From Squalus acanthias (lineage: Eukaryota): a stretch of DNA of 64,000 nucleotides. The notes below the pieces were generated by a model that was not told the DNA's origin, searched no databases, and saw only the letters and a list, made by a program, of their open reading frames with translations. Below, in pieces: positions 2,326-36,164 of this stretch. The stretch is taken from NCBI GenBank assembly GCA_030390025.1, contig CM059431.1, positions 143,284,001 through 143,348,000 of the forward strand. The letters run 5' to 3'. Each line of letters opens with the position of its first letter. The stretch's first letter is position 1. The position numbers and the translations under genes are program-made.

Positions 2326-4691
2326 TACTCGGATATTGGAATATGTCTTTAAAATAATTATTTTATTTCTGATGGACAGCATGGCCATTCACAGAGAGCG
2401 GCAGTTCCCTGCTTGTCTGACGCGCCGTTCTGTCGTGTATTTTACTGGACGGAACAGGAGAAGTGGGCGGGGTTATGCTGCGTTACAGAGTTGGTATTCA
2501 CACGGAATGACACACACTGAGACTGCAACCTGAGACTTTCATTCCACCCGTGAGAGATACCAAACCTGAACTGGTGAATTCTGGGAATCAGCTACTTGAC
2601 AAAGCATTTTGAAAATGCAGCGGAACATAACAACCTGCTCCAGAGAGAGAGAAGCAAGGTTCGCGGTGAAACTGCCGGAGGCATTTCTCACAGGCACTTG
2701 CTGATGTTCTGCGAATGTTTCGTCTCTGTTCTAGTATAATGTCAATTTTAAGGAATGTATTACCTTTAGTAATGTACTATCATGTTTGTATATAGCGATG
2801 GATGCGCTTCATTTGATCCACTAACCTTAAATAAAAACACTGATATGCTTTTCCGATTCATTAAACTTTCTCTTATAGGAAGTAGAAACTCTTTCTCACT
2901 TACTTCACTGTTAATGGTTATTGCAGGAATAGGCCTCGAGGAAGGCTCACTTCAATTTGTGTCTTTCTATTCAGTCCGAGCTCTTCACTGTGAACCCACA
3001 TCTCCCAAATTTACTTAAAGATCCCAGATGTGCTTCCCACAATCAGTTTTTCCCCTTCCTTATAGGAACATTTGCTAAACTTACACCCTGCTATGCAACT
3101 CGCTACGAACAATGACACTGTTGTTATTAATGTAAATTGTTACATCTAAATTAAACAGAGTCAAAAAGTCACGATGGTAGCTTAAAGTAAGTCTGAAGAT
3201 AAAACACGATACATTAAATTAAAACAAAAGACAATAAAGTAAAATAAATTCTAGTGTGTATTATGGAGCTTTAGATATTACTGCACAGGGATGTTGCTCG
3301 GAACAGACTTAATTTCCGATTTGCATTGACATTTGTTCCAATTCTCGTGTTCTTTGCTTGAAAAGTTGTAGAGTGAATTGATATTGTGTGGCTGACGGGC
3401 TTGCAGTTGGGTATTAACCCCATAACTTGGTTGTGCGGCAGAATTCCGGGACTGGGGTTCCTGAGAAAGCCGAAGCATTCTGACACAGACATTGTTCGGC
3501 AGCATCATTTCCTGTTCTAAGACAATCAGACCGCGGTCTCACTTCCTGGGGCCCATCGTGAAGGGCGCCGCAGTCTGGAGTTGGTGATTCCCGATGACGC
3601 AGGCGCGTTTCAAAAGTGGATCTGGTTCGTCACACTTCAGGCACTAACAGCCAATGGGTGCAGCGCTCAGCCGATTCTGTGACGTGTTACCAGTTATATT
3701 CAAGAGCTCCTGCATCTTTCACTCTTTGCACTTTGTTTGCTCAGCAGTTTTATTTTATTTTTGAAGCTCATGGATAACAAATAAATCGCTAATATTTATG
3801 TGTCCTGTTTAATTATCTTTAGCGGTCACTGGACTTGTGGACATCATCGCTCTGCTTTGATTTGCACCTTTTATTATAACGCAAAATGTATTTAAAATCC
3901 GGCCGAGGTAAAGATCTGCTTAGATCTGTGTGGAACAAGAGGCAGATTCCGATATTAAGGATGGCCGTCAGACTCAGGATGGAGCTCTGTAATCATCCAC
4001 TAACAGTCTACAACCACAGAACTCTCTGCACTGTGATACAAACACATCCAACGCGATCATCGTGTTCCGTCTGGCAAATATACGATGAAGAACTTCGCGT
4101 GAGTTGCACCCGGACTATTGAAGTGTAATTCATGGTTTTCTCTTACCTGAATATGTAATATGCTTACAGCAAACTGATCAATATATTACTTTGGCTGAAA
4201 CAATTATGAACGAGTAGATTTCAGCTACAGAACTAAACATTACCGGAAATCTAAAGACTGTCACTGTCCAACTGACTCTGACATCACAGACGCATCGAGC
4301 AATTGGTGTCTGCTTCACCAGTATCGGTATTATATTCACAAGGAATTGTGAAAGAAGACACCCATTCCATAGGTACTGAACATTTCTCCGCTCTAGTTAA
4401 TTCTGCCGATTAAGCCATAGGTTCATGTGAACATTCCAACTTCAGTGTGGTGGAAACTGGCGGAATTTACACACCGCCCAATTGTCTATATCATTATAGT
4501 TAATGGAAAATGCAATTCGGCGGGGTGTATGACTGACGCCCAGGCCGGAATTGAAAGTGACCTTCGTTTCAGAATAGTCAGATTCCATTAACCCCAAATG
4601 GATCGATAACTAACTTTACAACTTCAGTTTCAAACAGCTTAAATTGGGGTCGCTGAAATGCTCCTTACAACTAGTTCTGGAGGATTGGCTG

Positions 4692-5430
4692 TGTAAGATT
4701 TGGATCACAGGTCACATACAGATTACCCAAAGGTTTTTAGGAGTTTGTAAGTCTTTTTATTAAAGAGCTACAGTTTAAAGCATAATCAGATATTACATGT
4801 GGTTAAGATAAGTATAATAGACATACAACCCGTGACTGAGGAGTGCGATCTACGGCCCTGAAATGGAACGAAACAACCGGACAGACGGTGAGGCAGTACG
4901 GTGGTCTCGGATTGGGTGGATTCCTTCAATCTGCTGCAGCGGTCACTTCCGTTGGGTCGTCCCTCGAGCTGTTGAAGGTGTTAGGCCGTAGCCACCTCGG
5001 GGAAGCCTTCACCCCGAACTGCCTGAGTTCCTCTCTCGGTCGTCTATATTTATAGTTATTTCAGCGGGCTGGTGATTAACTGGTGTCAATCATTTTCCAC
5101 CATCCTATTGTCCAATAACAAGGGAGAGGCCTCCTATGACAGACCCCTCCCAGCCTCATTAGTTCATTTTCCTCCTTATCTCTTTTCTAAAGGTCTTGTT
5201 GCCCTCTTGTAGACAGCTTATTTATCCTACAGCTCCTTGCGGCATTCCCTAACAGGCCTAGTTATGCCCACTCGAAGGCCTGTTTTTGTGATCTGACCTC
5301 GTAATTCAACTCTCTGTACAGCTATTTTTCGGACATGACTGGAATCCTTCTACTTCATCAACTTAGGCAAACTACTGATATAGGGATCCCGTAACAGACT
5401 ATTATTTATTTCAATCCACGATTCCTTACA
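4692..5430 (-). repeat. 3' LTR of element 1
   Basis: Direct repeat of 8824-9602. Minus-strand AATAAA (~4756) and TATAAA (~5049). Adjacent PPT ggtggggaga at 5431-5440. Confidence 0.95.
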
Positions 5431-5779
5431 TCTCCCCACCTTGAGAAGGAAATATTCTTATTGACTTCTTATATTCGACTCTTGAATAATCTAGCTAGTT
5501 TTTATTGATCTCTGTATTGGGCGTTAGTTAATAGGGACTCTCGAAAATGAAGATTTTCCCCTTCCTTACAGTCCATTGTTTTGAGTGGGAGGGCAACATC
5601 TGACCCCTTACTCAAATTCAATTCCCAGTTCCGGAGTTCCAATTCTGCCTCGCCTGGGGTATCCTCTGTTTCTTCTAGCTTTCCTGATCATACCCCGACT
5701 GGGGTCTCCTCTATGTTGCTTCAGATCTTCTCTTTCAGTTTGCTCAATTATTTTTTTGGTGCTGTTTAGTCATAGGCAT

Positions 5780-6300
5780 GAGTACACAATTGACTTATAT
5801 ATCAATGTCTTACTACACAGGTTATATATATCAAATACACTATCATTACAAGTTGGAGAACTATCAGAGCGTGTGAAATAATACGAACCTAAGGGTGTGC
5901 TGATGTATTAAGTCCAATATCCCACCAGTGTGAGTTGTCCGTTATTCTATCAATTTCAATATCTATTCTCTAGTTGTCTTACTCCAAAACATAAAAATGC
6001 TTCAGGGAGGAGTTCAGTCGCATCACGAGCTCACTGAACCCCTCAGACAACAGGAAAATGTATTACCCGAATTGTGCCACATAATTGTGCAGCTCATACT
6101 TAAGTATCTCATTTACTGTCAGTTTCAATTGAGCATAGGTTTTGATATTGTGGAAAACGTTTTATTTGATGGGACAGGTCCTGTTAGATCCGTAAAGTAT
6201 GGTAGTTGCCGTAGTAGTGACACTGGGGGCACCACCAAAACCACCTCATACTGGATTTGTACTGGTTTTTCCCACACTCTGTTAGCTACAAAGCACAATT
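5780..6300 (-). pseudogene. Envelope (TM subunit) remnant of element 1
   Basis: Manual translation gives LTVNEILKYELHNYVAQFG*YIFLLSEGFSELVMRLNSSLKHFYVLE*DN*RIDIEIDRITDNSHWWDIGLNTSAHP*VRIISHALIVLQLVMIVYLIY. It aligns colinearly with ORF 20824-21306. Confidence 0.85.
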
Positions 6301-8804
6301 ATTACAGTCACAGTTAAATTCAGTCTTACATTCATTTTAAGCGACATTACAGTTTAAAACCTAATCAAGAAATCATGGGCTTAAATAATTTTCTAGATCT
6401 CTCTTACTCGTATCCATCTTGTGGATAATTCTTACTAAACATGATTTCTCCTTAACCCAATTGTCCCAATCCAAATTCCATGTAACTCTCCACTTCAATT
6501 TCAATTACAATCCCTCTATAAGGTACCAGTGTGTTTAACTGTATTCTGATTGTTTCATTAATTAGATATTTTCTCCATGGAGTACATGTCAATGTTTTAA
6601 AAGTTGCCTCACTCTCCTGAGCCACGTAAACGATTTCATGTCTTGCTGTTGAGCATGTCTGAGACCCGTTTTTCAGTGCAAATTAACCACGCTTTTCCAG
6701 ATGGTAACTGCTTCATCCGTAAAAAATCACATTTACACACTCAAATCGGTAGTCCATATTCTGCCACACGTGCCATCCGATACAAGCCATTCCCCGGCTT
6801 TCAGGTATCAATGGATTGTAATCGTCTGGAGATCTTTGCTCATCTTCCTGTGCATGGTCCCGATGTCTTGGGTAATGTCCGCACTATCACATTCAGTTTT
6901 ATTAAAAGGTTCATTATAGGCAGGGACTCAAATGTCTCAAAGAGAATGCTATCAATTTACTAATTGTAGGTACACTTTCCTGAGTTTAACTACAAAGTTT
7001 GGAAAATTCCCATTTGGTAGTGTAATTTTCCTGCATCTATCTTACACCCTCAATCACTTCCTCTCTCCATTTTACACATCCCATGAATTGCTATCCATAG
7101 CTCATTCGTGAGCTCTGCATGAACTTTACTGACCAGTACAATATTTAAGATAGAAAACATAGATCAAGCGTTCTCACTTGGTCCAAGCTATTAACACTTT
7201 TTATTTTCTCAAAATTATCCCAATATATAGTGCCTGAGTCCATTTTGTTATTTCAAAATTATCCTGAATCCAAACAGCAGTATTGTTGAACTGACAGGTT
7301 TTGTCAATGTTCAATTTCATTTCTATCAATTTATCTTGTCAATTCCAATTTCAGAAACAAGTGATTCCCAGGCTAGGTGGTTTACACCGTGTTTTAACAT
7401 TAGAGACAGAGGTGCTTCAATTAGGTTACAAGGTAACTTCCATATAACAAAAGAGAGAAGAGAATCCATTGTGGCTGTGCTTAAGACCCCAATGGGTTAA
7501 TTTAACAAACCATAATTTTCCTTCTGTCACTGTGGGGAAATATTAATATAAAATTAATAAAATTTAATTTACTAATTATCAATATCTTTAAATTTCATTC
7601 AACAATACGAAATATGTTGCTTTTTTAAGTAAAACAGCTGTCAGAGGAAAGGTTTAACTCATTTGCAGGTTTTTAAGAAGGTGCAGCAAAACATTATTAG
7701 GCACACGCAACTGCGTCATTTCACGTAAATTTGAAAAACTTTCCCGATCGAAAAAGACAGTTGTGTTTTCACAATTTAATAGTTTAGTTACCCTTAATGA
7801 TTCCAATTTAGTTCAGATCAATATTTTATTAACTAAACAGGAACAAAACAGATAAAACAGTAAAGTACGTCATATTTCTTATTGTCCTTTCTTCTGATGC
7901 CTTTCCTACTGACTGTAAAAAACATTAAATACAACTGGAAGAAAAAATAGTTTTTATCATTTAAACAAATCAAATCAAACAGCTTTGGAAAATTTCAACA
8001 TAGCTACCGCAAACCCAAGGTTAAATCTTAGACTGAAACTTAATCTTTTGTTAAACAAACTTTTTATTTTTCTCAGCTTTTCCACACCAGCTTAAATTAA
8101 ATTGCAGTTTAAAGTTTTTTTGCCAATTCTGGGGTCACAATCTTATTCGCAAATTCTTAAAACTTCCAAAATCCAAGACAAGACAAAAGGGTTAAACGGC
8201 TTTTAACACAGAAGTGGGTGGAGTTAAACAGACACTTTTTATTTTAAAGACAGACTTTCAGAGAAAAGGAATATTGTAACTTATTAAACATTCATAGTCA
8301 GGAAAACTTCCACATTTTAACACACACTTTCACACAAACTGAAATTTCAGCATTTTTTCAGTTTCCTTTCACTCAGCAAATCTTGTGTTTTATTTGTATC
8401 GCACAGACGTTAATAACTTCTTTGTCGGTAAAACATTCAGTTTCACTTTTTTTCTCCCATTTTTAATCGGTTTCTCAGCAGCTTTTACTGGCTTTCCAAA
8501 TCCCTTTTTTTACCCCTTTCTTTGCTGTGTTTTCAGATTGGTGAGACTGCAATTCAGATTTATTTTCCTTTTCTACCTCAACCCCTCTCTCTCCTGCAAT
8601 TTAAGCTTCACCTCCTTCAGGCTATCTATCAACTGTTCCCGGTGATATGCCAACGCCATTGTATTTCTGTTTCTTCTTTAAAACACACTCTTTCCCGCCC
8701 CCATCTTTTAGAGAGAAAAATACTCAGTCTAAGCAACGATCACGTGCGTTTGACCAATACCCTCCAGTCCCCTCAACCGGAACCTTACAACTCCCAAATC
8801 TGTG

Positions 8805-8822
8805 ATCCCACTTCTGAAACCA
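8805..8822 (-). promoter_or_regulatory. Primer-binding site, tRNA-Leu
   Basis: Minus strand TGGTTTCAGAAGTGGGAT directly inside the 5' LTR. It has one mismatch to the tRNA-Leu complement TGGTGTCAGAAGTGGGAT. Confidence 0.85.
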
Positions 8823-8823
8823 C

Positions 8824-9602
8824 TGTAAAATTTGGATCACAGGTCACACACGCAGATTACCCAAAGGCGCTTAAGAGTTTGTCAGGCTTTTTATTAAAGC
8901 GCTACAGTTTAAAGCATAATCAAATATTACATGTGGTTAAGATAAGTATATTAGACATACAACCCATTTCAGAGGAGGATGATCTACGGCCCTGGAATGG
9001 AACGAAACAACCGGACGGACGGTGAGACTGTACGGTGGTCTCGGATTGGGTGGATTCCTGCAGTCTGCTGCAGTGGTCACTTCCGTTGGTTCATCCCTCG
9101 AGCTTTTGGAGGTGTTAGCCTGTCAGCCACATCAGAGGCTAAACTTGACAAAGGTGTTAGGCCGTAGCCACCTCGGGAAAGCCTTCGCCCATAACTGCCT
9201 GAATTCTTCTCTCGATCGTCTACATTTATAGTTATTTCGGCGGGCTGGTGATTACTGCTGACAATCATTTTCCCCATCCTATGGTCCAATTACAAGGGAG
9301 AGGCTACCTATGACAGCCCCCTCCCAGCCTTATGATGTAATTTCCCTCCTTATCTCTGTTCTAAAGTTCCTGTTGCCCTCTTGTAGACAGCTTGTTTATC
9401 CTACAGCTCCTTGCTGAATCCCTTAACAGTCCTAGTTGTACTCACTCGAAGGCCTGTTTTGTGTTTTGACCTCGTAATTGAACTCACTGTACAGCTATTT
9501 TTCTGACATGAAAGGAATCTTTCTGTGTCCTCAATTTAGGCAAACTGCTGATCTGGGGAACCGGTACAGAATGTTATTTCTTTCAATCCACGATTTCTTA
9601 CA
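8824..9602 (-). repeat. 5' LTR of element 1
   Basis: Repeat of 4692-5430 with scattered substitutions and an extra ~40-bp segment (~9110-9150) bounded by aggtgttag direct repeats. Confidence 0.95.
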
Positions 9603-9764
9603 GCTGGAAATAAAGAACTTGTGTTAAAATTACCAATGGCAGGAGAGGCCAAACTGGCGGCGTCGCATTCTCCCCTATTATACGCTGCTCTGGAACTGAA
9701 TGTTGTGAGGAGCATATACTGATATTGCTGTGATATTGCCTTACTGCCCAAGACGAATTTCTAC

Positions 9765-10185
9765 CCATTGCATTTATATTACGCCGTTCAAGGCCTCAGG
9801 ACGTCCTAATGCGCCTCACAGCTAAAAAGTTATTTTAAGGTGTAGTCACTGCAGTAATGTCAGGAAATGCTTAAGACAATTTGCGCAGAGCAAGGTCCCA
9901 CAAACAGTAATAAGACAAATGAGCAGATAGGACACAATTGGGCATGGGCGGAGGACACGAAGCGATCGGTATCATTTCGAGCGCCTGTTATACGCTTGGC
10001 CCGATATTCAGTTCCATTGATTTCATTGGAACTGAATATGGGGCCTGTCGTAAATAGGTCAGCAAATGTGAGTAGTCTGGTTTGCGACGCCTTGCGTGTC
10101 GAATTGCACCCCCAATGATCTGTTGTAATTATGTTTGTTCAGGAATAAATATTGACCAGGACACCGGAAGATTCGCGATACCATG
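9765..10185 (-). mobile_element. Partial Deu-domain SINE interrupted by a ~175-bp MITE-like insert (~9930-10113)
   Basis: ttgcatttatat...gacgtcc...aatttgcgcag matches the copy at 14160. The SINE resumes after gaattgcacccc. Confidence 0.55.
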
Positions 10186-11738
10186 CAAGGCCGACTCGTG
10201 TAACAATTAGGAACACTTTAGCAAACCCGGAGCTCAGTTAATGTTTTACTTGTGGAGCCGAGCCCATCAGAGACAGGCAAGGGTCGAGCTCTAACCTGAA
10301 CTACCACCGACCATCCCCTTCTCTTGTGTTCCGGTCCAGAAATTCCGGCCCCGGAAATCAACGCCATCAGGAGAACTACAAACACCCGGTAGATGATAGA
10401 CACCGCAAAAAAAAATACAAACCGGAAGTCCAAAATAAAACACATTCAAGCCAATGATTTATTAATGAAATTTCAACTAACAGTGTACCCAATATATGCG
10501 GTGCCCATCAATCACAGCAGGCGTGTAAAGATCGAGTGGAAACTGCGCTGGCTGTATTCTATGTGTAACCGGGTATATTGAAGATTAAACCACTGGCAGC
10601 AGTCCGCGACATCTCCTCTGCTGATCTTACACATCCTGCAGTGTGAACGGTGGATTTCACCAATCCCAGGGGCATTCCGTCCTCCACATCTTCCAATCAC
10701 TAACCCAAACACCACTGCTTATATTGGAAAACAGCTTCAACTGAGGCACAACTGGAGGGTGGAAAAAATGTTAGTTAATTGGCCCAAGTTTTCATTTGAT
10801 GTCTTTTCACCGAGCAACGCTCTCAAACCCAGGTCCCCAGTGGGGGCGGGCGGAACTCCCAATACACTGCCTTGCACTGGTGATACTTGGTCAACACCAG
10901 TTGGTAAACGGCAGGGGGTATTACATATTATTGCCTGTGTGCAAACACAGGCAGAGGATTGTTTCAACTCAATACCTGGCTATTTCATTGTACAGATCGT
11001 TGAGATAACTTCCCCCATTATTTAGGATATTATGAATTCTTACACAGCTTAACCAGTGTGACCAGGTCGCTAATTCAGATTAAATGTATTCAGCGTCCCC
11101 ATGACAAAATTAGTAAATGCAAATAACAACATTATTTTAAAGTAGGTGAGCAGCCTTCAACTATTTCTCATTAATCGTAACGCCAGAAAAAAGCAGGTAA
11201 AATGACGCAACGTCAATTAGCAATCAAAAAATAGTGAAAAATCGCGACACTGGGAACGAGACAGTGGCATATTATTCCCAGGAGACGGGATGAGGCGGTC
11301 GGTGCAACTGCACTCAGTCCAAGCAACATTTTCAGCAAACCTGCTAGAGCAAGTAAAGTCACCAGGACTTCTAAACGACCGAAAGTTATCCTAAATTTGG
11401 CGAATTTTCCTGTTAGTTACTCGGTAGAATTAAATTACAGTCCTCTCTCTGTCAGATATTAAACACTTTGAGTAAATATTCCAACCCATTATTAAACTTC
11501 ATTCATCACTGACACGTTTCATACTAAAGGCGGAATGTCCTTATTTGTCAGGAGTCAACAGTTAACGAACTGTGGAAACCCAGTGTCAATGTTGGGTTAA
11601 ATTCCACAAGGGGCACAAATATAGTTGCGTACCTGTGAGATTTTACAAGATCCATCTTCATGTAGTTGTAAGGAGTGAAACCCCAGTCTAAGCTGCAATA
11701 ATAAGCGAAAATTGAATTCTAATGTTCCGAAGTCAGCT

Positions 11739-12658
11739 CTAGTTAGTATTTATTTCATTTTTAACCAATCTTAGAATCAGTGTCCAGGGAGATTTCAGCA
11801 CCTTCTTCAGCTCTTCTCTGAATTTCCTCTGGGTCACTGCATAAATAGACGGATTCAGACAGGGACTCAAAAGCTTCAGCATTGCTCCGGTTTCAGTGGC
11901 GATATAGGCTGGGTTTGTGCGGTCGCCTCGGTAATAATTGGGGTTTGCCAGTCCGGTAGTTACTAAACTAACGACAACTGTCAGCCACAATAATATAAAA
12001 CTGCCCGATATAGTGAAGAGTAAAATGATGGATTTCCTTCGGTTCTCCATCTCGGGATCACACTGATTCTCACTCTTGTTACCCCGGAGTCCCCTGCGGG
12101 CTCTACTGGCCACTAAAATACGTCTGATTGTCAAAGAATTACACAAGGCGATTAAAGTAAATGGAAGCCAAAATACCCAGACTGTGTGAAACCAGAAGTA
12201 CGCTGCACCTGGAGGTGAGGTAAAGAAGGCCACACTTGACCGGCAGCTCCACTGCACCTTGTTAATCAATTGCTGAGATTCATATGCAAATATAAAGGGT
12301 ATGTTCTTTAACAAGATCAGAACAGAGAACGCTGTTATAACCGCGGCCGCAGTTCTCTCGGTGCAATACTTTACTTTAAACTTCTGGCAACAGATAACTA
12401 CAAATCGGTCAAATGTGAAGGTGACGGTGAACCAAACTGACAACTCGAGGGTGACAGCCGTGATGTATAGAATGAACTTACACACGGGAGTCTGCGACAG
12501 GAATGAAAGTGGAAAGTGATAACTGAAAATATAATACACCATTACATTGAAGATCATGACCAGTAGGTCTGATGTTGCCATGGCCACCATGTAGACAGAG
12601 ATACACTTGGAAAGGCCGCAGTTTCCTCGGGAGAGAATCACAATTGTCACCAAGTTCG
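11739..12658 (-). CDS. Rhodopsin-class GPCR, GPR139/GPR142-like, exon 2
   Basis: Uninterrupted hydrophobic ORF with YMVAMATSDLL (TM2), FTFDRF (DRY variant), ENRRKSIILL and CLNPSIY (NPxxY). Acceptor tctttcttacag at 12659-12670; phase 1 joins exon 1. Confidence 0.92.
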
Positions 12659-13104
12659 CTGTAAGAAAGAGAGAGAGGAGAGAAATAATGTTCCAGTGTC
12701 TGATTGAAATTTATATGGAGATCCCTGTGGAGAGCATTTTACTCCATTCAGTGTGATTATCCACACGGAGCAGTGTGAGAACAGGATTAGTATTGGAGCC
12801 ATTACCTGGGAAACCCACCCACACATTTTAATGAGCTGTTGCAGCGCTCACTCTGCACGGGGTGACAAGACTGTCCGGAAAACCGCTAAAATCCTTGTAT
12901 TGGAGCTTTAAAGAACATTGTAACATCAGTAACATCATCAGATAAAGGGGGACACGGAAGTGCGGACAGGCGGTTCACTAGTAGATCCAATTACTGCTGA
13001 CTGTGTAATGCTGACACCGGAGAACGCGTTACCTTATCCATCAGGCACAAATAACAAAGAGACAATTAACACCGATTATCAACAAACAGGTTAAAATGGC
13101 TCAC

Positions 13105-16784: not shown

Positions 16785-19062
16785 GTGTGTGTGTGCGAGG
16801 CCGTTGTAGCAGAGCCTGGTCTCCAATCGTTTTGGTTCCCCTTTGCATTGGACCAAGACCTTGCTCTGTCAAGCCCGTGTGGTAGTTGGTGTGCAACGGC
16901 CACCCCACGTTAGAAGAATTCACGCACAGGCATCTTTCACCCTTTAAAATGAAGTTCGGGACCTGGAAAGTCAGAACCCTCATGTACAACCCCATGAGTG
17001 ACAGACAGTAATACCGTACTGCTACCATTGCCCGAGAGCTCAGACTTTTCGACATTGACATCGCCACAATAAATGAAGGTCTGCTCAAGGAGCAAGGCGG
17101 TGGCTACACTTTCTTCTGGAAAGGCAATCTTGAAGAAGAACGCCGCCTCCATGGGGTAGGCTTCACCATAAAAAATGAACTATTTGGGCGCCTCAGAGAC
17201 TCTCCTCGCGGTATGAACGAGCGCCTCATGACTCTTCGGCTCACCCTAGCCCTGAACCAGTGCACTACCGTCATCAGTGAGTACACCCCAACACTGGAAG
17301 ACACAGACGAGACCAAAGAGGAATTCTACTCCAACCTTGAACAATCCCTGTCCCGAGTCCCAACGGGTGACAAGCTGAACCTCCTTGGCGAATTTAATGC
17401 CGGAGTTGGATAGGACACAGACCTCTGGGGAGGTGTGATCGGCAGAGAGCGGGTAGGGAAAGCCAACTCCAACGGTACGCTCCTCCTGTCGAAATGCTTA
17501 AAACATGGCCTTGTCATAACCAACACCTTGTTCCATCAGAGAGACAAGTAGAGGGCTTCATGGCAGAACCCTCGCTCCAAGCACTGCCATCTGCTGGGCT
17601 ACGTCATCGTCTGAGCGAGGGACCGCAAGGACGTATGCGTCACCTGTGCCATGACAGGATCTGACGACTGCTGGACAGACCACCGCCTAATCCATTCTGT
17701 GATCTCCATCAATGTAGCCCCAAAATAGCGGTGGCAACAGAAACAATGCCGCAGGAAAATCAACGCTGGAGCACGCAAAGACCCTGCTAAGAAAGCTCTA
17801 TTCAGCCTGTGCCTCACAAACAACCTAACGACTCCCAGTGATGCAGAGAAACAGAGTGTCCACAGCACCTGGTCTGCACAAGAGGCCTCCATAATCAACA
17901 CCTGTGAAGAGACGCTCGGTCACTCGAACAGGAAACAACAAGACTGGTTTGATGAGAATGACCAGGAGATCCAGGAGCTAATAAGCTGCAAGCGCAAGGC
18001 ATTCCTGATCTGGAATCAGAACAGAACTCGAGAACAAGAAAACAGCTCTACAGAGGCCAGAAAGCCGAGGTCCAACAAAAAACTCGCGACCTAAAGAACA
18101 GATGGTGTGTGTGTGCGAGGCCGTTGTAGCAGAGCCTGGTCTCCAATCGTCTTGGTTCCCCTTTCCATTGGACCAAGACCTTGCTCTGTCAAGCCCGTGT
18201 GGTAGATGGTGTGCAACGGCCACCCCACGTTAGAAGAATTCACGCACAGGCATCTTTCACCCTTTAAAATGAAGTTCGGGACCTGGAAAGTCAGAACCCT
18301 CATGTACAACCGCATGAGTGACAGACAGTAATGCCGTAATGCTACCATTGCCCGAGAGCTCAGACTTTTCGGCATTGACATCGCCACAATAAATGAAGGC
18401 CTGCTCAAGGAGCAAGGCGGTGGCTACAATTTCTTCTGGAAAGGCAATCTTGAAGAAGAACGCCGCCGCCATGGGGTAGGCTTCACCATAAAAGAGAAAT
18501 TGGAGGAGATCCAGCAGCTAGCCGGGAACAACGATGTGCGTGGATTCTTTAGTGCACTCAAGACCATCTACGACCCAAGCACCCAAGGTCCTACACCACT
18601 GCTGGCCAAGAACGAAGAGGTACTCATCAAGGTCAGAGAGGCAGTCAGTGCCCGCTGGAAGGATTACTTCGAAGATCACCTGAACCAAGACTCTGTTTTC
18701 GACGCAAGTGTCCTCAACTCCATCCCGCAGCATGCTACCCGCCACCATCTCAGCACAACCCCAGCCCGGCATGAGGTTGAAAAGGCCATCCGACAACTGA
18801 AGAACAAGAAGGTCTCAGGAACAGATGGAATCCCTGCCGAGGCACTAAAGCATGGCGGAGAAGCACTACTGGTGCGAATTCATGAACTAATTTCTCTTAT
18901 CTGGAAGGAGGAGAGCATGCCAGGCGATCTCAGAGACTTCGTAATTGTTACCATCTTCAAGAAAGGTGAAAAGTCCGATTGTGGTAATTACAGAGGGCTT
19001 TCCCTGCTGTCTGCCACAGGGAAAGTCATCGGAAGAATCCTTCTCAATCGCCTTCTCCCAGT
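16785..19062 (+). mobile_element. RTE-clade LINE (APE + start of RT), cut off by an LTR
   Basis: MKFGTWKVRTL at 16949, YTPTLE, LLGEFNAGVG, GTDGIPAE and KKGEKSDCGNYRGLSLLS. Ends abruptly at the TGTTA of the LTR at 19063. Confidence 0.9.
18105..18493 (+). repeat. 389-bp duplicate of the RTE 5' end (16785-17173)
   Basis: About 10 substitutions between copies by manual count; both copies share an in-frame TAA. Confidence 0.95.
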
Positions 19063-20631
19063 TGTTAGAAGTAGCTGTTAGTTTCATAGATGGATTTTAA
19101 CCCTTAGAACAGAGACTGACAAACATGCAGCTGGGAACAGATAGCAAAAATGCGAGCAAGGTCGAATGTCAAGCATCAAAAGAAAAATAGAAGTGATAAG
19201 GGAATCGTAAAATGCAAAACAACGCAGGGTGGTGGGATAATAGACAAAAATGAAGCCGAAAAGTCATACAATGTCCTTAAAGAAACATAACAAAACATGC
19301 CTCAGAAAGATAAGACGGAGGCCTTGTCAGTCATGCCGAAAGGGACGGTGCGGGATGCTTTCCCGCTTCACAATTGGACAATAGGATGGGGGATCAAATG
19401 ATTGACACCAGGTGATTACCATCCCACCGAAATAACTATAAATATAGACCATCGAGAGATGGCTACGGACTAATACTTTGGTCAAGTTTAGCCTCTGAGT
19501 TGGCCTAACACCTCCAACAGCTTGAGAGGTGACCCAATGGAAGTGACCACTGCAGCAGACTGCAGGAATCCACCCAATCCAAGACCACCGTACTGCCTCC
19601 CCGTGCGTCCGGTCGTGTCATTCCGATTCGGGAGTCGTAGATCGCTCTCTACTGTCATGGGTTGTATGACTGTTATACTCAGCTTAAACCATATGTAACA
19701 TCTGGTTATGCTTTAAAACTGTAGCTCTTTAATAAAAGCCTTGCAACTGCTAAAACCCTTTGTGAAATCTGTGTTGGATTCGAATTTGGAGAAACCCCAG
19801 ACGGAGGCGGAATTGAGGACAAGTTCAAAATTTATTACAATAACCAAAAGACTTGTGCACAAGGATGAGCCACTCAGCTTCCTCAAGCTAGGGGTGCACT
19901 CTCGAGGGACAAGTAGCGGTTCATTCAAGTTATAGAATTCTATAAGCAACGCCCACCTACTACAGAATGTGGACGTACACGTACAAACAGTGACACAACA
20001 GTTACTCTTTATTGGCTTATGTGGTTAGTCACTCAACTGTCGGGCCCTCCCCTTAAACTCGGATACCCTCTGACCATGCCAGTCACAGATGTTGGTTGTC
20101 TCATCCTACTCACCACATTCCTGCTTTTATCTCTTCCCCGTTGTCGGCATAGTTTATAGTTTGAGAAAATATGTTTTATCCTTAACTGTCGAACAAGCAG
20201 GATGGCTACAAGGCCGCAGTAATTCGTGTACCCTGTGACTGGAACAATGTTGGTTGTTAATTGTACCCTTATTTCCTGGGAGGACAGGCCGTGTTTAGAC
20301 AATGGCTTTACTGAGGCTGTGAATACACACATTCCGAAGTTTGATAAGTTAAGTGGCGTCTTGCAGTCTGCAAATGTGCTTCTGTCAGCTAAACACAATC
20401 TATGGGTAAATAGAGGGTTAACATAGTCAAGTATCCCAGAATTCATTGGGAACAAGCTGGACCTTTCAGTTCCCCCTTCCAACTCCTGGAAAGGACCCTT
20501 AAAGCGGGGTTGGGGAGTGTGCTCTCTACGCTACGATAAGTGTGATAAGCTGGTGGGTTTATAGTATGTCAGAAACGCATATAGGTTTGCCCAGATCAAA
20601 CAGCACGAATGATGAAGGTTTTCCTGTAACC
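19063..20631 (-). repeat. 3' LTR of element 2 (interrupted by a solo LTR)
   Basis: TGTTA...TAAC(C) termini, minus-strand AATAAA at ~20008 and TATAAA at ~20558, next to the PPT. Confidence 0.7.
19076..19911 (+). mobile_element. Solo LTR (836 bp)
   Basis: TG...CA termini flanked by the 6-bp direct repeat AGTAGC (19070-19075 / 19912-19917). TATAAA at 19437 and AATAAA at 19731. Confidence 0.8.
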
Positions 20632-20823
20632 CCCTCCCCCCAATTTGTTCTATACTTCCCCCCACCCCCCTAGGCCTTTGCCTATTCTAGGTAGGCCGCA
20701 CAATTGTTGCATATGGTCTAGTGTGAATCCTATCGGGGTGGCCACCCGTTGAGGCACCAGGTATGCATCAGATGAGAAAAGTTAATATTTAGGCATTCCC
20801 TGATTCATTATACGATTGCTTCA

Positions 20824-22887
20824 TTATTCATACACTTGGTTTTTCCAACAAGTTGTTAAAGTCATCATCTGAAACGCTTGGAGTAGGGGCAGTATAAGCA
20901 TTAGCAGTTTTAACCATTGTTTTGCAATTTGTTTCGCCCGAGTCCATTTATATTTCCTGCATGTCATACATAACAAGGTCAGGACAACTATTAACTGCAC
21001 CACGACTAATACATGTGAAATCAATCGGATCCATGGATGGATCTGTATATTTAGTCCCCAGACCCAAATGCCATCCACCCATGTGGTCACCTTGATCGCG
21101 TCGATATCTTTCTTTAAATCCGTGTTCCGTTGTTGCAGAGTATAGTACACCTCTTGGGAGAGCCGTATCTCCTTCCGCAACTGCCTCAGGTGTTCGGGCA
21201 GTGGGGGTATCGGATACCCAAAGGTGTTGATGAAGTTCCATAATCCATACTTGATGTCTTCAGACACTTGAAGAGAGTTAATATTAAACTGGTGTATGTT
21301 CACCAACTCCTCGTGTCAAATCCGTACCGGAACTGCTGGTGTGAAGCAGAACTCTGGACTGGGGATGTCGCAAAAGTCTTCAAGTTGGTCATTACACAGT
21401 ATTCGCCTTTGCCGGCATATGCCACCTGGGTGGGCTTTGAGGCTGCGTCCAATGCCTCCATGGTGCAGTTAATTTCCATGCCTGTGTTGTTGAAACCACA
21501 TTGGGCTTGCGGGTTTTGGCTGATTGCATGCGGACACAGGATGATGGCATGTCTGGTGACACATCCCTCCAGCTTGGTACCCATCCGGTTTCCTTTCACC
21601 ATCACTGCGTAAGGTAACATATTGTGGTAAGATATATGCATGCCATCTTTTAGTATACAAATATTTTGTATCTGATATACCTCCCACCCTTGTTTCTCCG
21701 GTGTCATCACCGGGACGACCAAAACTAAACCCAGGACCCCTCCCCTCCCCCCCCCCCCCCGGTCTGGTTGGATTTGACCTACGTGGTGTATACCCGTACC
21801 ATGGCTCGGAATTGACAAACTGTAATATTGAGGCTACTCAAGAGACGTTTGAGCACACCCACCCCAGCATGTAGCTAGTCAGGGGCCCTTTCAACTGTTG
21901 GTTGGTAATCCACAGCGGTACCTCCCCTGCCTGTATCTGTTCCAGGTTTTCTCGGGTTTGCTCCACTATCCAATTCCCATATGTGCTGCAAACGTCGTTT
22001 GCTGCTGCCTGCTGTGAGGCATTGTATTCTTTTTTAATTAACTTTTTATAGCCTGCATGTGTGTTTCTAATACAGTAGCTATATCCTGGAGGTGTACGGT
22101 TAATATCTGGTCCTCCTTTAACTCTTGGCCCTCATTCTTATTCTGCTCTTGTAAGATGGCTTTAATGTGGGAACCCAGATCCCAGACCTTCTGATCTATG
22201 GTAGCCAGATCAATGGTGTTAACGGCCGATGTGCTGGTGTTAGAGACCGTCGCTGCATCATTAACTAAAGACCTCTTACGTCGCCATGCCCGCCGGCTTC
22301 CCTGTCTATATCTGCCTCCGCTATGATCCGCGCCTTGTTTCAATACCTGTGTTAGAAGGCGCTGGTATAACTGTTGGGTTTGTGGTGAACACCAAGCAGG
22401 CAGGGCGGTGTTGGCCAGGTTCAGCACCACTGACACTAATTCATGACGCACGTTATCATACAATATATCCCCAGTACGGATGAACACCAGCCCACTAGCA
22501 GGTCAGTGGCTCCCGCTCTGGGGAGGATTGTGTCATGGAAACCACTGGGGGCGGGGGTGTGAGGGAGGTTGTGCACCCCAGTAGCAGTGAATCACAAGTG
22601 GTAGCCCGGGCTCCTCGTATTGTTCTGTAATCCCGAAAGCTTGACATCTCTCTAGGGTAGGCGTACATAAGGGTTTCCCAACGCCCCGCATTATTCTGGC
22701 AAAATATCCTGTCCTTTCTTCCTGTGATTTTACTGGTACAGACCCCCTTGTGTGTTTTGTATGGACCAGTGTTCATCTCACAGAAAAAGGGGGCTCCCGG
22801 CCGGTCGACGCACGACCCCAGCGCTGTGGTGGGTGTTGTTTGTTCGCCGAACAGTAACCCCATCATTCCCATGATAAGCCACCCCAT
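20824..22887 (-). pseudogene. Envelope glycoprotein, F-like class I fusion protein, frameshifted
   Basis: Signal peptide MGWLIMGMMGLLFG, furin site RRKR (22272-22283), heptad region, LEQIQAGEVPLWI, Cys-rich GCVTRHAIILC...CGFN...NCT...GEYCV, WxxGLN...HPW, and TM ISHVLVVVQLIVVLTLL. Confidence 0.85.
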
Positions 22888-23223
22888 CGTTACACTATAC
22901 CACCGCTAGGCATAAAGAGTCCAGTTTGTTGAGCAGTCTCGGCACTAGCTTGTGGTAACTAGCATGCTCTCTCTCTCTCTCTCTCCCTCTGACCCCCTGT
23001 CTGTCACCAGCCCCCTTTCGGTCTGTCCTGCTATTAGCCGTGTGCGCAAGGCTTGAAGCAGGGTTGAGGCTACTTCATAAATGGCGTTGAGGCGGAGGCT
23101 GTGGCCTTGTGACAGTGGCTCAATGTAACTTACCTGACTTATCGTAATTCAGTGAGGGTTAGTAGCCGTCGGACGGCAATGTGTGAAGACAGGTTGCAGT
23201 GTCCTCCTTCGGAGGTAGGAGGG

Positions 23224-23562
23224 TCAATAAAAGGGGGTGGATATCCCCTGGGGTAGGTCCTCCAGTCCCGACACCAGCGGTTCCCAAAGAGCAGCTGTGT
23301 CTCGGAACCGGTCTATCTCCTCTGCGCGGGGTAGGGTGAATAAAAAATTCTGAGTTTTGTTGGGATGTAGAGCGAGGGGTCCTGTAGCCCTGCCACAAAA
23401 GGGAGACAATCGGAACTCTAGAGTCAAGGGGTGAGTTCCGGGGAAGGTCAGAGTGGTATAGTAATGAGAGTTCGCAGGATCCCTGGTTAAGTCGAAAAAC
23501 TGGACCGCCGAAAGGTCGACATCCCCGGAAGTGGTGGCAGCACTGAGGTCGGGCCCGCTCAT
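23224..23562 (-). CDS. Putative accessory ORF (112 aa, MSGPDLSAATT...) between pol remnant and env
   Basis: The ATG directly follows a strong acceptor cctgtctctttcttacag. No homology recognised. Confidence 0.45.
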   Translation of the reverse strand: MSGPDLSAATTSGDVDLSAVQFFDLTRDPANSHYYTTLTFPGTHPLTLEFRLSPFCGRATGPLALHPNKTQNFLFTLPRAEEIDRFRDTAALWEPLVSGLEDLPQGISTPFY

Positions 23563-23736
23563 CTGTAAGAAAGAGACAGGCAAAATAGCGCCCCGAAGAA
23601 TCAACTTAGTCCTTCGAAATCCGGTCCTGAGCAAATATAGGGGAGAAAAGGCAGGTCAATACTCGTTATTATTTCCTTTTAATCATAAGGTCCCCAAGAG
23701 ATGGGGAAATCTCTTCCCCGGGCCACATCACCGGCT

Positions 23737-24850
23737 TCATCTGGCTCCAGTGTCTCCATCTGGTTTCCACACTGGCCATACTGGGGAGTTGGTACGGGAG
23801 CGGGTCTTTGTCACTATACCGGTTTCGAATAAGTCCACTACTATGGACTCAATGGCCTGTTGAGCTTCTGATCGGAGTGGGTATTGTCGGTGGGCCTCGT
23901 GGTAGGAACCGTGGACCCTAACTGGGACCCTCTCCGCTCTACCACAGTCTAATTTGTGGGTGGCCCATGCAAGAGGGAAAGCCTCGCAAACTCTCCCCCA
24001 TGGTCCTTCCTCCGCCCATGTGCGCTTAACCGGACGGAGGGCTTTTACTCTGCATTGTCGGGCTTTATATTCCTGGAAGGGAAATCTCCCCCCTTCGGGC
24101 CCCTCTACTTCCAATAGATGATCACTTAGGAGCAAATTTGCCTCTATCTGATGGAGAATATCCATACCTAAGAGCAGCTCCTCACTGTTGGGACCTACCC
24201 ACAGGGTGACCCACCAGGTATGACCTCCTGGGGGCTGGCCCTCATTCGGAGGGCGGTTTGGTAGGGCCTTTCCAGTCCCCGGAGTAGACAATCTATAAAC
24301 CGTGGGTCGTCGTGATTAGCGGGAATGTCATTCGTCTGGCCCCAATGTTCATACTGCTCGATTACTCGATCAATGTACACATTGGGGTTTTCTCCGGGAC
24401 TCTGGCGCAGGGCGGTGAGCCCCGTCCAGGTAGCGGTGCCGTTGTCCAGTCCGGTCTGAACCCAAGTTTTCAAACTTCGAATTGGATCTCATACTCCGCT
24501 ATCGTGGCTGGGGCATTTAGGACATGGTGTCCCAAAGCCCCATAAACCATAGAGGGACATTTCACCTCGATAATATATTTTACGTCTTGTATGGACAAAT
24601 TAAAGTGCTGAGCAGCACTTCTTATTCATGCCCATACTTCGACGTTAGAATTGTGTCTTTTGAGATCGGGAATGAGGAGGATGACGCTGGATCTCTCCTG
24701 GGGCGTAAAAGACTGTGCCTCGCCCATCGTACCCAGTCCACCTATATCTGGGTTTTGGGATCTTACCACCTGATTAACTCGGATGGGGGCCATGGGGTTG
24801 CATTTTTCGTAGCCAAGACTGAAGAGGTGCAGTGGATTAGATACGAGCGT
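23737..24850 (-). pseudogene. gag (capsid), protease C-half and RT N-terminus, with internal deletions
   Basis: TPWPPSEL (~24780-24800), MHR-like motif, GMDIL, QYPL and NSPVWPV. No DTG, no YxDD, and no RNase H or integrase core seen. Confidence 0.8.
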
Positions 24851-25174
24851 ATTCGGGGGGGTGGAGCATGTAGGTTGGGTATCCTCGACTCATTGAACCT
24901 CTACGGCCCCCGATGGGGGCCCGGGTATAAGATTGGCGTGTCTCGAGTCTCTTTTTGTAGAGACACGACAATGTCACCCCAGCTTTTTAAGTCGTCTAGA
25001 TTCTCAGAATCTGGTGGCTTGAGGTGCAGGAGACTACTGACTTGGACTTTCGCATCCTGCACGGGTCGAAAAAATTCTTGTAACGGGGCCGGTCTCCCCG
25101 CCCCCCCCCCCCTTGTCCACGATTATGGGGCCCATCTGATCCATCCAACTAGCACACAAAACCGCCCCGTACTT

Positions 25175-25536: not shown

Positions 25537-25771
25537 TGTTGCGGCTGCCACGAAACATGAATTAAGGCCGAGTCCATGTGCGAAACACAAAAGCTTTTTA
25601 ATACATCTCTGCTAAGATGGCTGCTAACACACCAGACTCTGGAAGGTTCTGAGGCCACGCCCACTCCTTTTCTCCTGCCTTAAAGGCAAGGTGCCTTAAA
25701 GGCAAGGTGCCCGATTTATTGTCCACGGACGGAAAAGTGGCTTGCGCCCGTTTAGGTGGCGATCCGCCACA
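25537..25771 (-). repeat. Gypsy 3' LTR (235 bp)
   Basis: Terminal inverted repeats tgttgcgg / ccgccaca, followed by ctcccccc (PPT on the minus strand). Internal 15-bp tandem duplication cttaaaggcaaggtg. Confidence 0.8.
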
Positions 25772-28700
25772 CAGCTCCCCCCAGAATCCGCTTAGGAGGT
25801 GTGGGCAAGACGCTGCGGTGGTCTGATGGGCCAGCCGGAGCAGCTCTTGTAGGACGCCGGTGGACGTGGAACGGCCGGGCGTGGAGCAGCCGGGTGAACC
25901 GGCTTGAGGGCAGGTCGGCCACGTGGCAGTGGATGAGCTACAGGGACCTGCTCACCGGGCTCCGAGTGTGCTGGCTTGAGTCAGTCAACCAACACTTTTT
26001 CGGTCCTGTCGCCGACTTGCATGGTGAAAAATTTGTCCCCAGCATGTAGCACCTTGTAGGGCCCATTGTACGGGGGTTGAAGGGGTCCGCGGTGGGCGTC
26101 GTGCCGGATGAAAACGAACTGTGCCTGATGCAGGCTTAGTGGGACGTGTGAGGTGGATTCGCCGTGTCAGGCAATGGGCACCGGGGCGAACTGCAGCACC
26201 GGTGAGGCGAAGTCGTGGCGTTGCTGGTCGGCTGACCAGGGTGTCGTGGCGGTGGGCAGGAACTCGCCGGGTACATGCAGCAGCTGACCGTACACGAGCT
26301 CTGCTGCCGATGCGTGGAGGTCTTCTATAACCGCGGTGCGCAGGCCGAGGAGGACCCACGGAAGTCGATCGGTCCAGGCGCCATCCTGGAGGCTGGCTGG
26401 AAGAGATGCCTTCAAGGATCTGTGGAACCACTCACACAGTCCGTTGGCTTGGGGGTGGTACGCTGTGGTGCGGTGAATGGTCACCCCGAGATTGCGTGCG
26501 ACGCCGATCCAGAGTTCAGAGGTAAATTGCGGACCTCTGTCCGAAGTCATGTCAGAGGGGACGCCAAACCGTGCAAAACAGGTGCTGATGAAGGCTCTGG
26601 CGATGTCGGCGGTGGTGGTAGAGATCAGTGGAATTGCGTCGGCCCAGCGCGTGGTGCGGTCAACGATCGTCAGCAAGTGCGTGTGGCCTTGCGACGGCGG
26701 CAGGGGCCCGACGATGTCCACGTGGATGTGGACGAATCTACGCGAAGAGACGGTAAACTCCTCGAGGGGTGCTTTCGTGTGTTGCTGAACCTTGGCCGGT
26801 TGGCAGGCTAGGCAGGAGTTGGCCCAAGTACGCACATCCTTACGAAGGCCGCGCCAGACAAAGCGGTTGGCTACCAATTTGATGGATGCGTGGGCGCCGG
26901 GGTGGGAGAGGTTGTGCAGAATCTCGAATACCCGGTGGCGCCAGGACGCTGGGACGACGGGCCGAGGTTGACATAGGGATATGTCGCACTTGACCGTGAC
27001 TGCGGTCGGGCACAGGCGACGTCGGCCAGTCATAGCCCTGGTAGGTTGGTAGGTGCGGAGAGCAGATCAGGGTCGGTGATCTAGTCTGCTGCGAGCTGAG
27101 CGTAGTTGACTGCCAGGTGTGCGGCGTGGATGGCGGTGCGGGAGAGGCAGTTGGCTACCACATTGTCTCAGCCAGAGACGTGTTGGATGTCCGTGGTGAA
27201 CTCGGACACCGCCGCGAGCTGGCACTGCTGCCTGGCGGACCAGGGGTCGCTTGTCTTTGCCATTGCGAATGTCAGGGGTTTGTGGTCGACAAACGCAGTG
27301 AAGGGGTGGCCCTCCAGCAAAAAACGAAAATGGCGGACCACCAGGAACAGCGTGAGGAGTTCGCGGTCGAAGGTGCTGTACTTGACCTCCGGGGGGCATA
27401 GTTAGCGGCTGAAGAAGGCAAGTGGTTGCCAGTTGCCGTCGACCCACTGCTCATACACGGCACCGACCACGTGGTCGGAGGCGTCCGTGGTGAGCCCTAC
27501 CCTGGCATTGGGCCATGGGTGCGCGAGCAGGGTGGCGTTGGCGAGCGCGGTCTTGGTGGAGTCGAAGGCAGCTGATGCGTCTGCCGTCCATTCGACCGCC
27601 ATTTTGCCGCTCCTGCCCCGGAGGGCTTCATACAGGGGTCTCATGAGGGACGCCGCTTTGGGGATGAAGCGTTTGTAGAAATTCACCATCTCGAGGAACT
27701 CCTGGATGCCTTTGATGGTGGTGGGGCGGGGAAATTGTTGGACTGCCTGCACCTTGGTGGGCAGGGGAATGGCCCCAGCATGGGAGATGTGGTGGCCAAA
27801 GAAGTCGATCTTGTCCAGGCCGAACTGGCATTTGGCTGGGCTGAGGATGAGCCCGTGGTTGGTGAGGTTCCCGAACAGGATGCAAAGGTGTTCGAGGTGT
27901 TCCTGCTTGGAGGAACTGGCTACCAGGATGTCGTCCAGGTAGACGAACAGGTACTTCGGGTCCCGAAGGACCGAGTCCATGAGCCGTTGGCATGCCTGGG
28001 CCGCATTTTTGAGGCTGAAGGGCATCCACAGGAACTCGAAAAGGCCGAAGGGGATGATTACGGCCGTCTTGGGGACGTCCGCGGGGTGGACAGGGACTTG
28101 GTGGTAGCCGCGCACCAGGTCGACCTTGGAAAAGACTGAGCGGCCGGCCAGTCTAGCCGAGAAGTCCTGGATGTGTGGCATAGGGTACTGATCCGGGGTG
28201 GTGGCGTCGTTGAGGTGGAGGTAATCCCCGCAGGGGCGCCAACCCCCGTCTGGTTTGGGGGCGATGTGGAGTGGGGAGGCCCAGGGACTGTTGGAGCGGC
28301 GGATGATGCCGAGCTGTTCAATGGTGGCAAACCCGGTCCGCGCGATCTCCAGTTTGGCCGGGTCCAGCCTGCGGGCGTGGGCGTACACTGGGGGGTCTGT
28401 GGTGGGTATGAAGTGTTCCACCCCGTGTTTGGCAGCCTCCGCGGAGAAGGTCGGATTGGTAAGGGCTGGGAATTCGCCCAGGAGTGCCGAGTAGTCATCC
28501 GTGGCCCGAGCGTGGCACTGTTATGCCATGTCGGCGGGTTGACGGGGGGCCATGGCGCCCAGGATGGGGGATATGGTGTTCATGTCCACGAGGCGGTATC
28601 GAGGGATGTCTACCAGTAGGCCGTGGGCGCACAGGAAATTTGCGCCGATGAGAGGGGAGAGCACCTTGGCAGTGATGAACTCCTATCGGTAGCGGCGACC

Positions 28701-29348
28701 AGCGAGGTTGAGGGTGACTGTCCGGGTGCCGTACTTCCGGATTTCCGAGCCGTTAGCCGCAGCCAGCGCCGGTCCTCGTTTGCCCTTTTGGATGTCGAGG
28801 GAGGAGACCGGGATGATGCTGTGCTGAGCTCCAGTGTCGCACAGGAACCGGCGGCCGGTTTTGTCATCTGTGACATACAGCAGGGAGCCCGCGTGGCCCA
28901 CGGCCATCACGGGGGCTGGTACGGGGGCGGACTTGAAAGAGCAGGGAGGTGTGCACCGTTGTGCCCTGGCGCCGAACTGTGCATGGTAGTAACAGTGGCC
29001 GGGGTTAGTGGGGCGCGAAGGCCCCGTGGGCCTGGTGGCGGTTCCTTGTGGCCGTGAGGTTTGCGTCCAGGCATCGGCTGCCAGGTCCGGAGTGACTTTG
29101 CGGCTGGAGTGAGCGGACAGCAGCTTGTCGGCCTCATCGGCCAGGGGTTCCAGGTCCGTCAGGCCGGACGCCACGATCGCTGGGCGGATGCTGAGAGGTA
29201 GCTGGCGGATGAACAGCATGCGGCAGAGGGATCTGGGTGGGCTCTCGTCGGTGAGGGAGAGCATGTGGGAGAGGAGGTCAGACGGTGAGGGATCACCGAG
29301 GCCTGGAAGGTCGAGGAGGTGGCAGTTTCGCTGGTATGCCGAGGCCGT
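25537..29348 (-). mobile_element. Ty3/Gypsy retrotransposon, CsRn1/Kabuki-type (CHCC gag), 5'-truncated, with stop codons
   Basis: Gag CYYH-X9-C-X3-C, PR FLCDTGA, RT YLDD, RNase H LTTDAS, integrase HVDIVGPLP...TSDRG...YHPQANG, in PR-RT-RH-IN order. 3' LTR at 25537-25771 followed by a PPT. Confidence 0.92.
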
Positions 29349-29459
29349 AATTTTTTTAAGGAGCACTGCCAATAACTTCTCCCCTTTATATTGTCGTCCT
29401 CTGGATATAAATACCAGCATTCCATTAGGCTATTTTGATCAAATTCTTTGGGAGGACTA

Positions 29460-35714: not shown

Positions 35715-36155
35715 CAGCATCAATCATTTCTTCAATGTGTCCAGAGTTTCCCCTCCACTGATCTACCTGGGAGTCCGCTCCAAGTGTCAGCATCAATCAT
35801 TTCTTCAATGTTTCCAGAGTTTCCCCTCCACTGATCTACCTGGGAGTCCGCTCCAAGTGTCAGCATCAATCATTTCTTCAATGTTTCCAGAGTTTCCCCT
35901 CCACTGATCTACCTGGGAGTCCGCTCCAAGTGTCAGCATCAATCATTTCTTCAATGTTTCCAGAGTTTCCCCTCCACTGATCTACCTGGGAGTCCGCTCC
36001 AAGTGTCAGTATCAATCATTTCTACAATGTTTCCAGATTTTCCCCTCCACTGATTTACCTGAGAGTCCGCTCCAAGTGTCAGCATCAATCATTTCTACAA
36101 TGTTTCCAGAGTTTCCCTTCACTGATCTACCTGGGAGTCCGCTCCAAGTGTCAGT
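35715..36155. repeat. 73-bp minisatellite, 6 near-identical units
   Basis: Units start at 35715, 35788, 35861, 35934, 36007 and 36080. Confidence 0.97.
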
Positions 36156-36164
36156 CACTCTTTG

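Follow-up and report, generated by a model that had tools for sequence, protein, structure and literature searches.

The bovine ERVK D-type, mouse ETn and koala recKoRV elements follow a common non-autonomous pattern (PMC10924933). In the koala recKoRV1, a foreign middle lies between a 5´ long terminal repeat (LTR) with its leader and a segment that runs from position 7,619 in env to the end of the 3´ LTR (PMC6112702). Here we analyzed a 64,000-nucleotide stretch of the Squalus acanthias genome (contig CM059431.1, positions 143,284,001–143,348,000; hereafter the window), which contains two retroelements with env-derived sequence. Element 1, at positions 4692–9602 of the window, is probably an old copy from a highly repeated family of LTR elements that has no detected gag or pol, carries the broken 3´ end of an F-type (paramyxovirus-F-like) env, and was likely multiplied by a helper retrovirus.

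Such a defective element spread on helper proteins is already known from other systems, and element 1 is an ordinary instance of this pattern. Similar to element 1, recKoRV1 is dispersed and defective; its LTRs and an env 3´ end enclose a middle that has no intact genes. However, recKoRV1 is gammaretroviral and very young, retains a portion of the gag region and has two known parents (PMC6112702), whereas element 1 is an old copy with an F-type env, and no helper was found for it. Bovine ERVK[2-1-LTR] D-type, the mouse ETn/MusD and the IAP I-delta-1 elements are likewise trans-amplified morphs that retain gene portions beside the LTRs. In contrast to element 1, for which trans-complementation is inferred, these families belong to another retroviral class, are active, and have documented trans-complementation (PMC10924933). 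Zebrafish BHIKHARI (Bik-2) is also a non-autonomous fish LTR family, akin to a lineage whose env is F-type, but it has an intact gag and no env, whereas element 1 has an env scrap and no detected gag (PMC12067270).

Two described retroviral groups resemble the env family of the window. The lokiretrovirus Env, like that of element 2 and its relatives, shows kinship to the F proteins of paramyxoviruses and pneumoviruses and has an RxKR site, a coiled coil and an anchor (PMC7947760); element 1 holds the C-terminal part of such a protein only. Lokiretroviruses are defined by their reverse transcriptase (RT), with a dual RNase H and a CGIN1-like integrase as further marks, and the study lists none in the six chondrichthyan genomes screened (PMC7947760). 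Because element 1 has no RT and because none is listed in those six genomes, it cannot be filed as a lokiretrovirus. The foamy virus Env is a retroviral Env with an F-like core (PMC11468914), and it appears at rank 11 in our structure search. The RT piece of element 2 best matches foamy RT, element 1 has no RT to place, and no foamy Env sequence match was obtained. An open-access literature search found no paper on the family of element 1 or on endogenous retroviruses with F-type env in sharks.

Structure and copy number of element 1

Element 1 lies on the minus strand and comprises two LTRs that are 11% apart, both of the form TG...CA, and a 3,393-bp interior between them. Its parts are as follows.

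8824–9602 (−): 5´ LTR, 779 bp
4692–5430 (−): 3´ LTR, 739 bp, with a gap of 42 bp when aligned to the 5´ LTR
8805–8822 (−): primer binding site (PBS), 18 bases from TGG, one base past the 5´ LTR
5431–5442 (−): polypurine tract (PPT), purines at 11 of 12 positions
4688–4691: target-site duplication GCTG, left copy, from the sequence
9603–9606: target-site duplication GCTG, right copy, from the sequence
5443–5807 (−): putative decayed env tail or 3´ untranslated stretch, from translation; the profile match fades at 5745
5808–6236 (−): F-type env remnant limited to the stem helix and the transmembrane anchor, with 5 stops among 143 codons of a single frame
6250–6963 (−): coding-looking stretch; pieces in two frames, with a 120-codon in-register antisense open reading frame (ORF) at 6601–6963
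7000–8520 (−): AT-rich non-coding interior, 31–35% GC, where each of the three sense frames has stops; repeated in all four runs examined

Each LTR contains one TATAAA (LTR position 373 or 377) and an AATAAA close to its 3´ end. The PBS at 8805–8822 is the sole match at up to four mismatches within the window. It is presumably of the tRNA-Leu type. ARAGORN found no tRNA anywhere in the window, and Rfam gave no match at E ≤ 0.1 across 4200–10200. The contigs of two sequencing runs (X1 and X5) include a related empty site that has GCTG once; they connect position 4691 to 9636 through exactly 29 letters that resemble the flank.

The 29 letters that follow the target in this empty site are identical to the right flank of the window at 21 positions. 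The related site in X1 and X5 also indicates that the insertion target (4117–4691 and 9607–9700) itself exists in more than one copy.

No gene of a retroviral core was detected in element 1. Pfam recognized no family in any of its six frames, a PDB search of the three sense frames gave no match at E ≤ 1, and the sense strand has no long ORF. The same PDB search did pick up the RT piece of element 2 (about 50–80 residues, E 4e-6). Together, the TG...CA LTR pair with the target-site duplication, the PBS and PPT, and the lack of intact gag and pol are the features of a non-autonomous LTR retroelement. The coding-looking stretch at 6250–6963 matches nothing in Pfam or PDB, including a separate PDB search with one frame of 6361–6723. 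A captured RBPMS2-like mRNA was considered as cargo of the interior and is not supported, as none of the frames contains an RRM family, though cargo in decayed or untranslated form is possible.

To assess whether the structure is repeated, contigs of 4 of 19 sequencing runs were placed on the element at 80% likeness (X1, X5, X7 and X8; two runs of organism A and one each of organisms C and D). The depths were as follows.

X1: interior 2,429–41,824; flank bins 112–250
X5: interior 4,147–50,445; flank bins 183–507
X7: interior 10,608–110,377; flank bins 104–345
X8: interior 881–43,563; flank bins 3–6

In all four runs, each of the 16 interior bins is at least about 8 times as deep as the highest of three low flank bins. 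The majority of the placed records are less than 95% alike to element 1, which fits old paralogues, and only 1–3% of them continue into unlike sequence. Interior loose ends, among those listed, comprise at most 10 contigs each, compared with 115–217 where the flanking short repeat ends. Of the 32 listed contigs, 4 bridge the point at 6236 where env is truncated; they come from three organisms and are 13–17% divergent. A further 39,270 pieces and 4,418 loose ends are outside the listing. The interior depth, the bridging contigs and the scarcity of loose ends strongly suggest that many copies have the defective structure itself. A contig of organism C at 9575–9870 overlaps the LTR by 28 letters only, and we do not claim that the insertion of element 1 is common to another species.

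Of the 735 aligned sites of the LTR pair, 84 differ (41 transitions and 43 transversions), which gives a Kimura two-parameter (K2P) distance of 0.124. At a rate of 2.2e-9 per site and year, the mammalian value applied in a previous study (PMC7947760), this distance corresponds to an insertion age of 28 million years (My), which the flat transition/transversion ratio advises reading with caution. Because sharks mutate slowly (the epaulette shark rate is reported as low, 7e-10 per generation, in PMC10587355), the true age is probably greater than 28 My. The spectrum of LTR–LTR substitutions is unusually flat also in that just 7 of the changes are of CpG type, which may affect the dating.

We propose the following course. 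An ancestral retrovirus with an F-type env would have lost or swapped its middle, and the env end would have persisted as a passenger because it adjoins the PPT and the 3´ LTR. This end would already have been non-coding when element 1 was inserted, and the interior may later have been joined to at least two LTR variants. The RNA of the element would be transcribed from the 5´ LTR, packaged by the Gag of the helper and primed at the PBS, with reverse transcription and integration carried out by the Pol of the helper.

An earlier note on this stretch had described an LTR-PBS-PPT-LTR layout with a GCTG duplication and about 3.4 kb of internal sequence. The LTR pair, PBS, PPT, duplication and related empty site bear out the layout, and the 3,393-bp interior bears out the length. 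The LTR dating that the note called for has been carried out and gives the 28 My, probably more, reported above. Its statement that pol is absent holds for element 1, where gag is undetectable as well, but not for element 2, which keeps the first part of RT and an integrase tail. The proposal of a non-autonomous, trans-mobilized family agrees with the interior repeated in all four runs, the divergent bridging contigs and the few records that run into unlike sequence, but the accompanying description of its members as env-carrying is not supported.

The env remnant and its relation to element 2

The env peptides of elements 1 and 2 share 35% identity over 115 amino acids (E 9e-13). The alignment scores 165, whereas 2,000 shuffles average 27.7, reach 53 at most and never attain the observed score. 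A profile of 786 positions was built from 20 database relatives of the env. Element 1 matches this profile solely at positions 595–770 with 74.5 bits, compared with a maximum of 3.3 in 100 shuffles. When the profile was cut into eight segments, just two exceeded all 60 shuffles: the stem at 31.4 bits and the anchor at 36.2 bits. The other six segments, which are the N-terminus, F2, the cleavage site with the fusion peptide, heptad A and two head segments, score at shuffle level in element 1. Hence the last fifth of env survives and about four fifths are gone; no signal peptide, cleavage site, fusion peptide, heptad A or head is present in an open frame, and the piece cannot be a fusion protein. 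An F2-like motif at 6512–6712 (weak likeness, E 0.47) was rejected, as the best F2 score lay elsewhere and was attained by 29 of 60 shuffles.

The remnant contains 5 stops in 143 codons, whereas 0.9–1.2 are expected from the 6.2% decay after insertion (P 0.003–0.008). Because about one stop would be expected and five are observed, the env was probably already truncated and decaying in the parent of element 1.

The env family is F-type, because its profile matches the human parainfluenza 3 fusion protein F0 in PDB (E 5e-5) and because paramyxovirus and pneumovirus F proteins occupy ranks 1–10 in a Foldseek search, ahead of foamy virus Env. The search used a model of the full-length relative P0015 and gave low TM-scores, and the model itself is of low confidence (pLDDT 49.7, pTM 0.34). 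The PDB profile search returned no foamy Env sequence, and Pfam gave no family above its cut-off for any of 11 proteins of the env family. All 10 of the 21 relatives that were checked come from sharks and skates (Mustelus, Heptranchias, Pristiophorus, Rhinoraja, Heterodontus and Chiloscyllium), as do P0001 and P0023. A protein search with a mixed frame of the element 2 env gave one match, and a profile word search gave P0015 and P0023 only. With the element 1 remnant, none of 174 word-sharing candidates (226–720 amino acids) reached E ≤ 1 in a search of low sensitivity, which missed the relatives P0003 and P0016. The ESM Atlas gave no usable match for a piece of the element 2 env. Viral contigs searched with P0003 contained three confirmed stretches and no locus, and a metagenome scan with the remnant of element 1 produced 301 pattern matches, none of which was confirmed.

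Two members of this family are intact F-type env ORFs with a basic cleavage site and an anchor: P0015 (Chiloscyllium punctatum GCC29952.1, 739 amino acids) and P0023 (Scyliorhinus torazame, 754 amino acids). They are identical at 630 of 734 residues without a gap (86%); the bamboo shark and the catshark belong to two shark orders. This pair is a candidate host-captured envelope gene; recent cross-species transfer is the alternative. The one chondrichthyan env survey that the literature search found screened syncytin-like Env only, with an immunosuppressive domain (ISD) and CX6-7C (10.64898/2026.05.06.723177). If the candidate is correct, it would be a captured fusogen of a class outside that screen and would matter more than element 1. 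In addition, database gene models fuse env pieces to other sequence: P0001 contains zinc fingers, P0010 a Niban-like protein, and the end of P0002 matches a receptor gene of the window (E 6e-4). These three fusions are probably annotation joins.

The second element and a further LTR lie at higher positions in the window.

19772–25160 (−): element 2, with its own 3´ LTR at 19772–20117 and a gag-like remnant upstream of the RT start
19063–19771 (+): related LTR of the family of element 1, which shares the 3´ 390 bp (about 85% over 385–393 bp) and has a different U3

The env of element 2 is near-complete but broken; 20908–22583 match profile positions 203–767 of 786 in four pieces. The RxKR site, coiled coil and anchor are seen in this env and in the database relatives. 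In pol (23690–24000, −), the RT start (about 23755–24000) abuts an integrase GPY tail (about 23690–23750), which reveals a large internal deletion. The RT piece is short, and its best PDB match is foamy virus RT (E 4e-6), followed by murine leukemia virus (MLV) RT (E 0.005). The gag label comes from sequence motifs alone, with no Pfam match, and no 5´ LTR of element 2 was found in the window. Two coding-looking minus-strand stretches of element 2, at 23100–23600 between pol and env and at 20033–20530 between env and the 3´ LTR (a 165-codon ORF), are possible accessory genes; Pfam gave no match for one frame of the former.

The LTR of element 1 shows no similarity to the 3´ LTR of element 2 (shuffles attain the score in 78 and 27 of 200 cases), and the env regions show no similarity at the DNA level. 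The remnant of element 1 is 28–38% identical to the ten sequences with a useful alignment length, element 2 (35%) among them; P0009 and P0013 gave no useful alignment. In contrast, the element 2 env is 59–74% identical to P0001 and P0003 of Heptranchias and groups with them in the env tree (support 83/93, not starred), whereas element 1 forms a long branch without a resolved placement. The two elements thus neither share an LTR nor have envs closer to each other than to other relatives. Judged by these sequence comparisons, they have a common env superfamily and not a common family, and each lost different parts.

The further LTR at 19063–19771, which adjoins the 3´ LTR of element 2, was missed in the earlier note. 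It interrupts an RTE-like long interspersed element (LINE), and the abutting LTR of element 2 cuts it in turn about 26 bp short of its end; the other side of either insertion was not found in the window. In X1 the env-side interior of element 1 is deeper than both LTRs combined, and the env-side bins are the deepest interior bins in X1 and X5. The excess of env-side depth in X1 and this second LTR with another U3 suggest that the interior of element 1 may have travelled with several LTR variants. The RTE-like LINE contains a 389-bp duplication at 97% (16785–17173 and 18105–18493).

The similarity between the env peptides and the dissimilarity of the LTRs, both proposed in the earlier note, withstand the shuffle tests. 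Its further reading of one diversified family that lost pol twice fails, as element 2 is no closer to element 1 than other chondrichthyan envs are. The idea that env was kept twice in pol-less insertions fails as well, since element 2 is of another lineage and retains a gag-like remnant and both ends of pol. Nor does element 1 keep env in any useful sense, given the six segments at shuffle level and the excess of stops.

Alternative explanations

Three other histories were weighed against multiplication of a defective family by a helper. The parent family may have encoded a shortened chimeric membrane protein, in which an N-terminal part from 6250–6963 was joined to the env stem and anchor and was kept by selection; the stops would then be private to the element 1 copy or its sub-branch. 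We consider this unlikely. The remnant is free of frameshifts for 143 codons, the 6250–6963 stretch looks coding and has its in-register antisense ORF, the env side is the deepest part of the interior in X1 and X5, and the weak F2-like likeness lies in the correct order (E 0.47). However, the env remnant has an excess of stops, the F2 profile stays at shuffle level, the low-sensitivity search found no relative among its 174 candidates, and no signal peptide, cleavage site or fusion peptide was detected. If such a protein did exist, its new ectodomain on an F-type stem and anchor could co-assemble with the fusion protein of the helper or block it, as a decoy or a dominant-negative form.

It is quite improbable that element 1 arrived as a complete provirus from which gag, pol and the greater part of env were deleted later, with the depth contributed by full-length relatives that share pieces with it. 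No contig covers the whole element, small groups of loose ends (2–10 contigs) occur within it, for example at 6871, 7206, 7267 and 7854, and element 2 in the same window demonstrates that internal deletions happen. Against this, divergent contigs of three organisms are collinear across the env truncation point, the listed interior loose ends are minor beside those of the flanking short repeat, and only 1–3% of records continue into unlike sequence. There is very little likelihood that elements 1 and 2 form one diversified family whose non-autonomous members retain a functional env. Both envs belong to the F-type superfamily, and element 2 retains nearly all of env with most of pol gone, but the elements share neither LTR nor env similarity at the DNA level, element 2 groups with the Heptranchias proteins while element 1 stands on a long branch, and element 1 is without about four fifths of env.

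Several points weigh against multiplication of a defective family by a helper, which we nevertheless prefer. A decayed gag could escape the search, just as the gag-like remnant of element 2 has no Pfam match, and this reading does not account for the coding-looking stretch at 6250–6963. The excess of env stops weakens if the decay was larger (P 0.03 at 9% and 0.06 at 12.4%), and the remnant stays in one frame, with 5 stops compared with 9.2 for random DNA of equal composition. No second full-length copy was seen among contigs of 200–570 bp, none of which covers the whole element, and summed contig depth is not equal to copy number. A pol-bearing minority, or copies with other middles, may be compatible with the contig data. 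Metagenome scans did not find a helper partner with matching LTR ends and PBS, and the scan with an LTR 30-mer gave no match.

Neighbouring features and implications

Three other features of the window lie apart from the two elements and the related LTR.

25543–29360 (−): GC-rich element of Ty3/gypsy-like type that has remnants of protease, RT, RNase H and integrase, together with one LTR beside a purine tract, read by eye
11739–12710 (−): 323-codon ORF of a rhodopsin-family G-protein-coupled receptor (PF00001, E 1.5e-24), presumably akin to the expanded GPR139-like receptors of sharks
35715–36172 and 59089–64000: a 73-bp minisatellite and, at the window end, a tandem array of about 1.9 kb

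Element 1 gives no demonstration of selection for env in pol-less elements. Its presence indicates that sharks already carried the F-type env lineage in the germline tens of millions of years ago or earlier. If its multiplication by a helper is correct, it would extend the parasite-of-parasite pattern of endogenous retroviruses that carry the 3´ end of env both to cartilaginous fishes and to the F-type env lineage.

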